Origin: Octopus vulgaris
Taxonomy: Eukaryota
NCBI GenBank assembly: GCA_951406725.2
Contig: OX597825.1
Location: forward strand, 16,616,001-16,680,000
Reading direction: 5' to 3'
Length of the DNA stretch: 64,000 bases
In this document: in pieces, positions 44,075 to 59,300 of the stretch
Layout of the letters: each line of letters starts with the position of its first letter
Numbering within the stretch: position 1 is the stretch's first letter
Made by a program: the position numbers and the translations under genes
Notes under the pieces: model-generated
Told to the model about the DNA's origin: nothing
The model's input: only the letters and a program-made list of their open reading frames with translations
Database searches by the model: none

Positions 44075-44747
44075 GCGGTTGTCGTAAAGAATCCACTTTT
44101 CATCGCAAGTCACAATCCGGTCGAGAAACTGGTCGTTCTTGTTGCGTAAAAGAAGGGAAGACGACACTCCAAAACGGCGTTTTTTTTTGGTCGTCGTTCA
44201 ACTCGTGCGGAACCTATTCTCAAGTATTTGTTTGTTTTTCCAATCTCTTTCAAGTGGTTGGAAATTGTCGTAACCGTTACGTCTAATTCAGAAGCAAGCT
44301 CTCGAACAGTTGTGCGTGGATTGGCTTCGACTAAGGCTCTTAGTTGATCGTTGTCAACATCCGATGGCCGGCCACTACGCTTATCATGTTCAAGACTCTC
44401 GTCACCGCTACGGAATTTCTTGAACCACCATCGTGCTGTACGTTCATTAGTAGTTCTTGGGACAAACGCGTCGTTGGTATCGCGAGCTGTTTCAGCAGCT
44501 TTTCGGCCTAGATTGAACTGGAATAAGAAAATTGTGCGAATTTGCTTTTTGTCCATGTTGTATTCAACGTTCCGGAAAAAATGGCCTAATTATTCAAAAA
44601 GAAAAAGAGTAACACGCTTAGATAGAGCAAAAAAAACGGGCTTTAAAATGATATATACATCCAAAGTAATTTAATGAAAATTAATTTGAAAATACATAAT
44701 TAAAAACCAACATTAAAAATTCCGCAAGAAATTCCTTGACAACCTGA
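44075..44747 (-). pseudogene. 5' half of a cecropia-subfamily (Hsmar1-like) mariner with left TIR
   Basis: ORF 44110-44556 reads MDKKQIRTIFLFQFNLGRKAAETARD...ERTARWWFKKFRSGDESLE..KRSGRPSDVDNDQLRALVEANP.TT.RELASEL; after frameshift VPHELNDDQK.RRF..SSSLLLRNKNDQFLDRIVTCDEKWILYDNR. TIR TA|TCAGGTTGTCAAGGAATTTCTTGCGGAATTTT at 44749-44716. Truncated just after the first catalytic D. Confidence 0.93.
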
Positions 44748-51506: not shown

Positions 51507-53260
51507 TATATACTAAATTAATAGTGCTGACTAAATGCAGATTAATTAAAATATTAAATTATTTTTCAAAATATATTTCTTGCCGGATGATTTCCAATAT
51601 AAAGATTTAACGTGTTAGAGCCTTTTCTGTGTCTTTCAATAGTATTATCCTATATCTAATTCTATGATCACGATTACAGAACGCCTTCATAAATATATAG
51701 ACGGGAACATTTAAGGATTAGACATAGAATATGAAATCATGAAGGATATATCAAGCGCTTCGTTATCTTTTAATGGTCTTAAGATAAATCATAACGTTTG
51801 TTTATAACAAAGCTTCCTGGGTTGCTTGTACTGCATGTTTCGTAATCCAACAGTTTTCAAGTTGGTGAATACTCAATAATAATTAAGTTTTAATTAAATA
51901 CATTCGTAAACTATAACTAAAATATAATAGTTTTATGTTCAATCAATGATGTAACGATACGCTTAGAACCAATTCCGCAATGTGATAACTTACATTTTTT
52001 ATTGAACCGGGATGGAAATTTAAATTTTTATGCATAATCTTAAAACATCATATTCTTATGTTTCTAAATTTGTAAGCAGCACTTCCAACAGAAGAATTAT
52101 AGAATATAGTTCAGAAAGGAAATAATAGTTCATTGATTGATTCCTTCCTTCCTTCCTTCCTTCCTCCCTCCCTCCCCCATTCATTCTGTGTTTTTTTTTT
52201 TTTGCTTTCCGCTCCCTCCATGCATCTAGTAAAATCTATTAATAAAAATAGAGTAAGAGTTATGCTGCTCTTATTTCAAGAATGTGATGCCGTTTCATTT
52301 CTGAAATTAAAATTTATTTGCGTCACTTGTGGAGATATAGAAAAGATATATTCGTTACATTCCCAATGCCTTTCCATTCCTTGATATATGAAGCATACAT
52401 GCGTACTCTAAAGAATTGATACGAATATGTCATGTTCTTTAACGAACATATAAATGTATTTCTTTACAGGTGGTGAACGGCTTAAAAAAATGAAAAAAAT
52501 GGTATGTAAAAAATAGTAACATCATAATTAAATTATTGAATTTGATAATTATTGTGTCGAATCAGAAAGAAAATATTTGCAGCTGTGTTAGGTGATAAAA
52601 ACTTTGCTGACATCCATTATATTTGATACAGATTGTATTTGCAATGTGCGCATAACCTGGTTGATTTCCTTTTCAGAAAACCTCGACTTATCTGGATTGT
52701 CACTGAGGCATTCACTCACAAGCTAAATGCATCAATTATTATTGGTAAAAATGGAAATTTATAAACTGGCTATAGAACTTGGAAGCACCGAAGCAGTTGT
52801 CCGTAATTATCCGTGATTTTTTAAATATATATTCATGTCAGCAGGGCAGCCTGTATTTATGTATATCTGCGTGTCGTGTACGTATGTGTGTATTACAAAC
52901 AGGTATGTATCTATGCATGTGAAATATGTAAGAAAAATATGCAAACTTCTAGAACTGACATAATGGAAGTTAAATTCAATACATTTCAGTTTATTTTCCT
53001 TTCCTTTTACAGCGTAAGTCTATCGCCTAAAGCTTGTAAGAAATAACGCTGGTATTGGCGGGATTCCCCTTCACAGTAAAAGTGAAAGTAAATGAATCAT
53101 TTAATGCTTGACTGACTAAAACTGCTTATGTTTACATGTCTCTGCACTAAGTCTGTGTTGCTCTCGTATATAAGAAAAGAATCATCTTCCCACTCATTCA
53201 AGGGGCCACTAACAGAGGGTCTTAGTAGTGAATAGTCATCATGGATGATAAATATCTTAT

Positions 53261-53428
53261 AGGCGCAGGAGTGGCTGTGTGGTAAGTAGCTTGATTACCA
53301 ACCACATGGTTCCGGGTTCAGTCCCACTGCATGGCATCTTGGGCAAGTGTCTTCTACTGTAGTATAGCCTCGGGCCGACCAAAATCTTGTGAATGGATTT
53401 GGTAGGCGGAAACTGGAAGAAGCCCGTC

Positions 53429-56835: not shown

Positions 56836-57446
56836 AGTACAAAGGAACCGATAAAGATTTTACATTTTAAATAAGATATATTTTATCGATCTGGTGGAGA
56901 GTTTTCTTCCAGTTAAAGTCAAGAAGCCCATTAATCAGAACAGATGTAACAGCTTATGCCTAGAATTTGATAGCCATTAACTACTAAAATATAGTTTCAC
57001 TGTAAATAAAAGTGCAACTCTTTTTGAGACAGACTTGAAAATATGGTCTTAGAACATAGAAAACCATGAGTTTTATAACGCATATTGATATTGTTAGAAT
57101 TATTTATTTCTGATTAAGGCGTATGTTCATGTGAATATATGTACGCGTGTCTGATGGTGGATGCGATCCGGTTCTCTGAAAAAACAACTTTTGCGTTTTG
57201 GATATCAATAAAATTTAAAACAGTTTGTTATACTTTAATGGAATCTATGGTGAAAGAGTTAATTCTAGGAAATGCAGAATTCTGAGACACTGTCGGATAT
57301 TAACAATGGATATTTAATGAATGAAGTATGGATTAGGATAAAACGTGAGATCGTTTTATCCTAATCCATATGGCATAAAGAATTTCGTTAAATTAAAGTC
57401 TGTGTAACTTTAACCTTTTCATATGTATAAATATTTACATTTTTTT

Positions 57447-57932
57447 AAATACTGATAGGGCACAGAAAGTGCGTCAATAGCCAGCTGGAGGAGGTGTCCT
57501 CCAGGGACTACAAGCTACAGTAGCATTCACCCTTAAGGGTTAGCCACATTTAAGTGACAAATATACTTCACGATGTGTTGCAGCTACTGTTTATATCTCG
57601 TTCAGAGATTCATTATTGCTTGTTTACACTTTTTCAATATCAGTGACTTTTCGTCACTGGAAAAAGTATATATATATTTGCAAGGGGAATCCACTTTTCT
57701 TCGGCAATCAGTGATTGTCACACGCTGATGACGGGCCAATACCCAGAAACTCGAATCCGTGTGTATCGTGTCAGATTGAAGATGGGAAGAATGGCTTCCC
57801 TTTGCAAATACTGATAGGGCACAGAAAGTCTGTTATAGCCAGCTGGGGGAGGTGTCCTCATGGGGCTACAAGCTACAGTAGCATCCACCCTTAAGGGTTA
57901 GCAACATTTAAGTGACAGATATACTTCACGAT
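57447..57932 (+). mobile_element. Hammerhead-containing non-coding retroelement (retrozyme-like or non-autonomous Penelope-type): 359-nt unit plus 127-nt terminal redundancy
   Basis: Direct repeats 57447-57574 and 57806-57932 (about 11 differences by eye); probable TSD ACATTTTTTT (57437-57446) / ACATTTATTT (57933-57942); internal hammerhead; no ORF. Confidence 0.75.
57719..57763 (+). ncRNA. Type I hammerhead ribozyme
   Basis: Stem I CACACG (57719-57724) / CGTGTG (57758-57763); core CTGATGA (57725-57731); stem II cGGG-CCAATA-CCCa; GAAA (57746-57749); short near-palindromic stem III ACTCGA(A)T; cleavage triplet ATC, predicted cut after 57757. Confidence 0.82.
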
Positions 57933-58283
57933 ACATTTATTTTGTTTTCCATATATTTAATACACCGTATATATTGATCTAATTTGCTTATCCCTACATC
58001 TACCTCTATATCCCTACATCTACCTCTCTTGAGCACGTTTAAGTGTATTCTATACGAAGAATATTTGGATCTCATCTATGAACTATTTAAAAGTTCTCAT
58101 ATATAAAAATGAGGTTAATATTTCAAAATATATAATCACATTGGCAATCAATAACTCTCCAGACATCTTAACATTTAACTAGTTTTTAGTTAAAACGCCT
58201 CCAATAAATTTTAATACGTTACGGCTAATGGAAAACATTGCATTTTGCTGGTGAAAAGCATAATTGATTATATCATATTTACT

Positions 58284-58712
58284 GGATCTTTTCGGTTTGA
58301 ACGGCAGTTTTTTTCTAGCGGTGTCATATGAATGTGTCACCCATAATTATGACCCTAGTATCGATCTTTTGCATTTTAATCTGTTTTAGGGTTAGGGTTA
58401 GAGTTAGGGTTAGTTAGGGGTGAGGGAAGGGTATCCTTTTTTCAGAAATGTAAATAAACCCAATCTGTTTCTTAAACGAGGGACATATTCATACAGCACA
58501 GAATGTTTTCACCTCAATAGACGTCATTGATTGGTCGAAATTGCAGAAATTGAAAAAAAAACAACAACAAATATCTTACAAACTATAGAATTTTCTCAAT
58601 AAAGCCAAGAGAAAAAGATGTTTTATAAACACATTCTACCAGTATACGAAGTTTAAAAGTGTTTAGTTACGTGGAAATTATGTTAAAACTGCCGTTCAAA
58701 CCGAAAAGATCC
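58284..58712. mobile_element. 429-bp MITE, Merlin-like, containing TTAGGG repeats
   Basis: Perfect 28-bp TIRs GGATCTTTTCGGTTTGAACGGCAGTTTT (58284-58311 / 58685-58712); 8-bp TSD TATTTACT / TATTCACT (one mismatch); TTAGGG-type units at 58386-58420. Confidence 0.88.
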
Positions 58713-59167
58713 TATTCACTTGTTTCATAATTGATATCATTAATAATCCCACACGGCAACAGGGAAACAAGAACACGGAACAGGATTTTTGGAATAACGG
58801 TGAGGGTCTATAGCACATTTTAAGTAATAATTTTTTTGTTTTACGATTATTTGATTTAGCAAAATCTGTGTTAGAATCACGAACTTTAAAAGTATTAAGG
58901 AATGAACGACATTACTTGAATAAGATATTTGTTGAATCTGCATTTGCTATCGGAAAATAAAAATGTCGGCGTTTTAAGATCAGTCACAGCTGAATTCGAC
59001 TTTACTACCATAACAAAAGTTTGAAAGAAATGTTAACTTTGTAAAAGATAACTTTAGGCATATGTAGCAGTAGCGTCGGAAATATATAAGCAAAAGAGAT
59101 TATTTTGATGTTGGAAACTTGAGTCATATTTTACATCAGGATAATTCTTACAGGAAATATAGAGATA

Positions 59168-59300
59168 AGCGCAGCCGTGGCTGTGTATTAAGAAATTCAC
59201 TTCCTAACCACATAGTTCCGTGTCCAATGCGACTGCGTGGCACATTTGGGAAGTGCCTTGTGAGTGGATTTTATAGACGGAAACTGAGAGAAGCCCGTCG
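59168..59300 (+). mobile_element. SINE family A, 5' half ending in an expanded (TA)n/(CA)n microsatellite
   Basis: gcgcagccgtggctgtgt..ccacatagttccg..actgcgtggcac..gccttgtgagtggattttatagacggaaactgagagaagcccgtcg. Confidence 0.8.

Follow-up and report, generated by a model that had tools for sequence, protein, structure and literature searches.

A type I hammerhead motif without a paired stem II foot in a non-LTR retrozyme family of Octopus vulgaris

We find that the hairpin at positions 57675..57810 of the window, by which we mean the whole 64,000-nt stretch of Octopus vulgaris DNA analysed here, carries a type I hammerhead motif of the retrozyme/Penelope type, an assignment made in a first-pass annotation and supported by the letters of the core, the stems, tandem arrays and insertion ends. 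The family to which it belongs is a known kind of element with a variant hammerhead; non-LTR retrozymes are recognized by tandem units that measure 150-450 bp and each contain a type I hammerhead, and the family has such units. On balance we favor the reading in which the hairpin is the hammerhead of such a retrozyme, likely spread by a Penelope-like enzyme, and in which the copy in the window, with its single hammerhead, is likely inactive.

The terminal repeats of this copy are 91.4% identical, giving a period of 359 nt, and the family unit is 352-359 nt long and non-coding. None of the nine window frames of at least 150 aa overlaps the copy. Its features are as follows.

57436..57446, forward strand: candidate target-site duplication, 10/11 identical to 57932-57942; weak, as AT-rich controls reach at least 10 nt in 7% of pairings
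57447..57932, forward strand: whole retrozyme copy, 486 nt, 1.36 units of the 359-nt period, one hammerhead; 5'-truncated, its 3' end being the family's 'short' end
57447..57574, forward strand: terminal redundancy, first copy, 128 nt (unit +46 to +173 after the cut)
57575..57617, forward strand: 'tail' of ~43 nt between the fixed family 3' ends at +173 and +215-217; in this copy present only within the unit
57675..57810, forward strand: long hairpin with the hammerhead, from folding, exact stem complementarity and family pairing
57705..57715, forward strand: 5' strands of the helices beyond loop 1; 57705-57709 pair with 57774-57778 and, in the family register, 57711-57715 with 57765-57769
57716..57718, forward strand: internal loop 1, UGU, facing U57764
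57719..57724, forward strand: stem I 5' strand, pairing with 57758-57763 and slipping by two in the closed fold described below
57725..57731, forward strand: core box CUGAUGA (C3-A9), canonical here
57732..57745, forward strand: domain II, with C10.1 (57732) facing A11.1 (57745), three G-C pairs (57733-57735 with 57742-57744) and a hexaloop
57746..57757, forward strand: GAA box (57746-57748), stem III palindrome (57749-57756, broken by A57755) and predicted cut
57806..57932, forward strand: terminal redundancy, second copy, its 3' limit being the commonest family 3' end (+173)
57829..57868, forward strand: conserved segment of ~43 nt, the stretch best kept with a sister family at the same distance from the cut (88% over 43 nt); also at 57470-57510, and a putative enzyme-binding element

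As RNA, the 136-nt hairpin folds at -51.9 kcal/mol compared to -33.2 ± 3.6 kcal/mol for 200 shuffled sequences, none of which was as stable (z -5.25). The arms drawn in the first-pass annotation (TGA/TCA, CAATC/GATTG, GGGAA/TTCCC and TATTTGCAA/TTGCAAATA) are exact reverse complements at the coordinates given there, stem I pairs 57719-57724 with 57758-57763, and the letters C57732, A57745, A57755 and C57757 are as they had been read. The internal loop had to be redrawn: instead of TTGT opposite TATCGTG, hairpins of the family form a GUGAU/AUCAY helix (pairing in 96.9% of cells) and leave UGU opposite U, and the TGA/TCA register, although possible in the window copy, is not that of the family, its middle pair falling in a gap in 34 of 71 aligned hairpins. 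The copy shows the CUGAUGA, GAAA and AUC boxes, three stems and an open-ended stem I, with cleavage predicted after C57757; the triplet is GUC in the family, and AUC, according to the title of PMC1636495, is lacking in most natural hammerheads.

The tertiary contact in the type I hammerhead of Schistosoma mansoni is made by the U that immediately follows stem I, the pyrimidine that immediately precedes it and the 3' A of hexaloop 2 (PMC2632901). The octopus hairpin is alike in that U57764 and U57718 occupy the positions of these pyrimidines and the hexaloop, U[C/A]AAUA in the family, has A57741 as its 3' letter; the three residues are kept in 70, 69 and 70 of the 71 hairpins, respectively, and at the level of sequence the extended stem I with residues placed for a loop 1-loop 2 contact is borne out. 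It differs in a smaller internal loop (UGU/U) and in lacking the G10.1-C11.1 pair. The Rfam search proposed with the first annotation returned no match at the gathering score and no hammerhead among the 12 weak matches at E ≤ 10.

The family is both arrayed and dispersed. A first look gave 4865 candidates in the 2.8-Gb genome; five partly overlapping motifs had 199, 327, 136, 58 and 39 exact matches whereas their reversed controls had none, and the family numbers at least several hundred copies. Partial copies are dispersed on many chromosomes, and tandem arrays of nine and five units, each unit 352 nt long, run without intervening sequence, their units being near-identical (1-5 differences); one array stands at G000:C2:14086399-14089549. 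Contigs of public runs guessed to be RNA carry the family and its unit-to-unit joins; as such joins are to be expected wherever arrays exist and were met in two large runs of unknown kind as well, they are uninformative on circles.

The ends of the copies were mapped at 90 loci left after removal of overlapping ones, 30 of them chosen by likeness to the window copy, comprising 127 segments. The 3' ends fall in two windows 43 nt apart in 103 of these segments, 61 of them at +160 to +182 after the cut (mode 173) and 42 at +205 to +222, with 24 elsewhere. Inverted pairs (n=31) join a long to a short end in 16 cases, short to short in 3 and long to long in none, the remaining 12 having one other end. 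The 5' ends are scattered, only 7 of 127 lying at the base of the hairpin, where the first-pass annotation had the integrated copy begin; the AAATA on which it relied does start at 57447 and 57806, and yet, given the scatter, 57447 is a truncation point and not a programmed start. Target-site duplication was rejected as a rule of the family, since 9 of 59 single insertions have one of at least 10 nt, against 7% of controls, mostly within TA repeats. Penelope-like elements are known for a tail on one end and for inverted, 5'-truncated copies (10.1101/2021.04.23.441226), and reverse transcription of the anole Poseidon element has two internal starts, the tail being what lies between them (Frangieh et al. 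2024, PMC11167929). As fixed 3' ends with inverted 5' pieces are a Penelope-like footprint, we assign the family to the non-LTR retrozymes.

Mobilization by a LINE, or spread as satellite DNA by recombination, could be argued from the young LINEs of this genome and from the near-identity of array units, yet we give it almost no credence: it leaves the two fixed internal 3' ends, the long/short inverted pairs and the partial copies on many chromosomes to be accounted for, and none of 59 printed 3' junctions has an A-tail, many running into TA repeats instead. Of two motifs taken from loose contig ends in the search for an autonomous partner neither had an exact match, and at three mismatches one led mainly to an unrelated LINE of ~5.9 kb. 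This young LINE, unrelated to the retrozyme, is arranged in tandem at L138-L140, and in L139 an intact frame of 1145 aa is present.

The copies might instead be isolated pLTRs of an autonomous Penelope-like element and not a self-standing non-autonomous unit, given their Penelope-type ends and the type I hammerheads that such elements bear in their pLTRs (PMC4209133). We regard this as very improbable, as the arrays of five and nine units have nothing between them and a coding extension was met at no family locus in the end mapping. In addition, among the 55 of 6136 endonuclease candidate loci that we examined by BLAST and covariance model, no autonomous Penelope-like element shares DNA homology with the unit, and local alignment of the unit 3' region with five candidate regions gave no partner (z ≤ 1.9). 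For Xenopus, in contrast to the absence of a homologous pLTR from our 55 loci, 21 PLE matches have been reported (10.64898/2026.07.22.740005).

Intact Penelope-like frames do occur in the genome, frames of 781 and 574 aa matching both the RT and the GIY-YIG domain, the RT just below the Pfam cut-off. One very young family (L092:2245-4587, L094 and L095 on G000:C16, C5 and C4), 98-99% identical between copies, has the 781-aa frame and an upstream frame of ~480 aa and ends in TA repeats; a pattern scan found no hammerhead in it. Another (L102:2082-4483, L104 and L113) has a type I hammerhead near its 3' end; the core reads CCGA in two copies and CUGA in one, and the foot of its stem II is U·U. 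A retrozyme fragment lies in L102, ~590 nt beyond the end of the Penelope-like element; it is absent from the relatives L104 and L113, which again speaks against a pLTR. C in place of U4 also marks small hammerhead repeats of L105, L106 and L113, so that this variant recurs in the genome.

How well the hammerhead itself is kept was judged on 71 of 83 distinct hairpins, the dropped ones being surplus units of arrays, near-duplicates, 5'-truncated rows or, in one case, a hairpin with an insertion; six subfamilies were defined by diagnostic letters. Stems I, II and III are paired in 94.6%, 95.8% and 93.7% of cells, and the fixed core positions are each kept in 66-70 of 71 hairpins, except position 4 (47 U, 22 C), where the two youngest subfamilies carry the change U4C (CCGAUGA). 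Conservation of the core across the family, suggested as a check in the first-pass annotation, was thus found, and so was its palindromic stem III, which reads ACUCGAGU in the family and, through a double change that retains the palindrome, ACCCGGGU in subfamily A, with one wobble in B. The covariation asked for by that annotation came out divided. Both-side changes occupy 69 cells compared to 21.8 in shuffles (16, 6 and 23 cells at three pairs of the helices beyond loop 1, and one pair of stem I), whereas counts by pair do not exceed shuffles (10 against 9.5 and 2 against 2.2), which points to few inherited events, namely the paired variants GACC/GGUC, CAACC/GGUUG, CAAUC/GAUUG and CAACU/AGUUG and the one stem I pair. 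Nearly private to the window copy are T57690, T57700, C57736 (in the hexaloop) and G57768.

It could be argued that the same Penelope-mobilized repeat carries its hammerhead as a decaying or very slow vestige, with C·A, C·U and U4C as tolerated losses and uncut multimers being copied without need of a circle. Core deviations (U4C, then C·U) do pile up towards the youngest subfamilies, D and E, whose internal divergence is 3.0% and 2.1% compared to 5-7% in the others, and between subfamilies the core region varies no less than the remainder of the hairpin (12 of 46 variable positions, against 23 of 164 in the 3' region). Moreover, anole Poseidon does not need its hammerhead for insertion in vitro (PMC11167929), and U4C considerably lowers activity in vitro, although it still works in vivo, where it is sufficient for a viroid (PMC3088659). 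Against a vestige, all 13 pairs of the active fold survive in the six subfamily majorities (three wobbles in A, one in B), C3, G5, A6, G8, A9, G12-A15.1, U16.1 and C17 are the majority letters in all six, with no fixed change from G5 onwards in this list, and the tertiary-contact residues are kept at 69-70 of 71. We therefore consider a vestige unlikely and retain the reading of a retrozyme with a variant hammerhead.

A search by covariance model identified a sister family (L232:1937-2490, G000:C13:22648436-22648989) of 360-364 nt, with 2830 first-look candidates, homologous to the family after the cut, with the best alignment at +69 to +109 and with ends grouped around +176 and +235. It has a U3-A8 core, a 1-bp stem III and an A-U pair at 10.1/11.1 in 29 of 30 rows.

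Two substitutions had been called damaging in the window copy, and they fare differently. A57755 is damage: nearly private (the position is G in 65 of 71 hairpins and in ~99% of contig depth in four public runs), it disrupts stem III at its second pair, makes the dimer stem weaker, the self-duplex dropping from -10.7 to -4.1 kcal/mol, and turns the triplet into AUC. C57732 opposite A57745, as far as the sequences tell, is the family-wide state and not damage. The 10.1-11.1 pair, usually G-C and highly conserved in hammerheads, is replaced throughout the family by C·A or, in the youngest subfamily, C·U: in the alignment 10.1 is C in 57 of 71 hairpins and 11.1 is A in 56 and U in 13. Counts made by eye agree, the first 100 of 199 motif matches having C in 89, U in 8 and A in 3, the first 100 of 327 matches to a second motif C in 89, U in 9 and G in 2, and two further motifs C in 46 of 58 and 33 of 39. 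Natural hammerheads with U·U at this position have been published, HHR_Amex2 of the axolotl among them (PMC7229834).

The account first given of the hairpin, which has stem II paired at its foot in the ancestor, takes both substitutions for damage and lets integration start from the hairpin base, is right about A57755 and could draw on the copies that do have U-A at 10.1/11.1 (U in 8 of 100, 8 of 58 and 5 of 39 rows) and on the A-U pair of the sister family, from which a much deeper ancestor may have been paired. As a whole it is hardly credible, since C is the majority in every subfamily, the G-C version has no exact motif match in the genome, the U copies are scattered over flank types at a level like that of other CpG sites, and the 5' ends are dispersed. 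A U-A subfamily, hinted at by small counts, was rejected on that same scatter and on the 46 of 58 with C. CpG retention was likewise dropped as proof of selection for C10.1: with only 5 of 21 CpGs kept in all six majorities and the 10.1 site scored lost in one small group, the test is uninformative.

What an unpaired foot might do is suggested by folding. The minimum-energy fold of the window hairpin is not that of a hammerhead, the active fold lying 5.4 kcal/mol above it: the strands of stem I are offset by two, and the core is engaged in pairs. The RNAalifold consensus of the alignment is this same closed fold, with G5-C17, A6-U16.1 and N7-G16.2 pairs and with C10.1-GG(G) paired to loop III; its 13 pairs form in 95.3% of cells and are kept in all six subfamily majorities, and a single change (N7 U to C) is specific to it. 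Folded as a circle, a real 352-nt array unit is closed and its active form costs +4.7 kcal/mol, whereas for two real array hairpins the double hammerhead is the free minimum at -125.9 kcal/mol; for a pair of window copies it lies 11.9 kcal/mol above the free minimum. When two units are joined in tandem, in cis, two closed units are favored over the double hammerhead by 2 kcal/mol, and the double hammerhead over two open monomers by 7.4 kcal/mol. When each of the 16 possible letter pairs is placed at 10.1/11.1, the cross-pairing of the closed fold is strong for just two, C·A (0.76) and C·U (0.87), which are those present in the expanded subfamilies; U·U is borderline (0.54). The closed fold is preferred to the open one in 26 of 29 intact hairpins with C·A or C·U compared to 1 of 3 with U-A. 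These values are for secondary structure only, in a folding model that ignores tertiary contacts, Mg2+ and co-transcriptional folding.

Based on these folds we suggest, with less than even confidence and as the least certain step of our scheme, that C10.1 acts as a latch that would leave a lone unit uncut until two units pair. Only tentatively do we extend this to the 8-nt palindrome as a two-way switch, in which a lone RNA or circle would be locked off through C10.1-GGG, two units would form stem III and both be switched on, and the 'broken' foot of stem II would be a selected trait. Dimer-only cleavage as regulation is an established idea (PMC4209133; PMC7761336), and in the open-access literature on octopus retrozymes or hammerheads and on a C-A mismatch in stem II we found no description of the family or of a latch, nor in the accessible parts of PMC2837043 and PMC3376415, although the supplements of PMC7229834 and PMC4209133 may list similar motifs. 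The sister family, with its A-U pair and a stem II predicted to be open (median 0.99), indicates that a latch is not general.

The closest relative in kind is Rtz_353 of the axolotl with its HHR_Amex2 (Cervera and de la Pena 2020, PMC7229834): both are repeats of ~350 nt with a type I hammerhead, in which helix III has 2 bp and a tetraloop and helix II is mismatched at its base. There the mismatch is U·U (PMC7229834), whereas in the octopus it is C·A or C·U; unlike HHR_Amex2, the octopus family keeps the tertiary-contact residues, and its youngest copies add U4C. HHR_Amex2 coexists with HHR_Amex1 (1-bp helix III), as the octopus family does with the sister family, and both axolotl hammerheads are weak alone and efficient as dimers (PMC7229834). 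As HHR_Amex2, with U·U at the base of helix II, cuts well only as a dimer, it provides a precedent for a latch. On the other side, 8 of 9 dimers from Xenopus did not cleave (10.64898/2026.07.22.740005).

Metazoan non-LTR retrozymes in general resemble this family: they are non-coding repeats, occur both in tandem and dispersed, and have a single type I hammerhead in each unit (PMC7229834; 10.64898/2026.07.22.740005), those of mussel measuring 350-390 bp (PMC7229834). A Penelope origin of retrozymes has been argued and Penelope-like elements proposed as their movers (Li, Clavereau and Pollet 2026, 10.64898/2026.07.22.740005). To this the octopus family adds a tally of the two fixed 3' ends and of inverted pieces; the main text of PMC7229834 contains none of the words 'tail', 'inverted' and 'truncated'. 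Anole Poseidon resembles it in having two internal reverse-transcription starts that bound a tail, AT-rich targets and an upstream hammerhead, and differs in being autonomous, with a minimal, protein-assisted hammerhead and a tail of 30-40 nt against ~43 nt here (PMC11167929).

We propose the following course of events. The tandem arrays and the dispersed 5'-truncated copies with two fixed 3' ends and inverted 5' pieces are observed. Read-through transcription of an array would yield multimeric RNA. A lone unit is predicted to adopt the closed fold, in which C10.1-GGG pairs with loop III and stem I is offset; where neighboring units pair through the 8-nt palindrome, stem II would be freed and a double hammerhead would cut after C17. 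By analogy with known retrozymes, monomers would then be ligated to circles, which the closed fold may protect. As in anole Poseidon, the enzyme would nick AT-rich DNA and reverse transcription would start inside the RNA at +173 or +216, pass the cut site for more than one unit and stop at random, here presumably after 486 nt. The copy has since diverged by ~5%, A57755 included.

For the window copy itself an effect of any kind is unlikely. With its single hammerhead it falls short of the two units by which Li et al. call a copy 'active', and monomer release in cis would be impossible anyway. A single rare letter, A57557/A57915, seen in 4 of 91 other copies, is common to its two terminal repeats, which when polarized otherwise have 4 and 7 separate changes, which fits one template and later decay, alike for a circle and for a tandem transcript. 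Elsewhere in the window an AT-rich inverted repeat of ~60 nt with weak miRNA-like Rfam scores lies 70 nt upstream of the element (57318-57380), and a short degenerate TTAGGG-like run (58386-58421) sits in a segment with flanking inverted repeats at ~58290 and ~58700. Two copies of a short interspersed repeat, which we take to be SINE-like, are found at 53259-53353 and 59165-59259 (74% identity), and a 159-aa frame on the reverse strand (44110-44589) is presumably the N-terminus of a mariner-type transposase.

The insertion ends of the family add genomic support for Penelope-type mobilization, and as Rfam and canonical descriptors miss hammerhead cores of this type, the number of such families is probably underestimated. 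Retrozymes have to excise themselves from multimers and yet survive as circles, which is usually explained by a weak helix III. The octopus family offers a specific second device by which monomers might stay uncut, and its natural variants, C·A, C·U and U-A, with or without U4C, are controls already present in the genome. If a latch does operate, then together with the sister family and the axolotl pair HHR_Amex1 and HHR_Amex2 it would point to a general rule in which monomers are kept uncut by either of two interchangeable devices.
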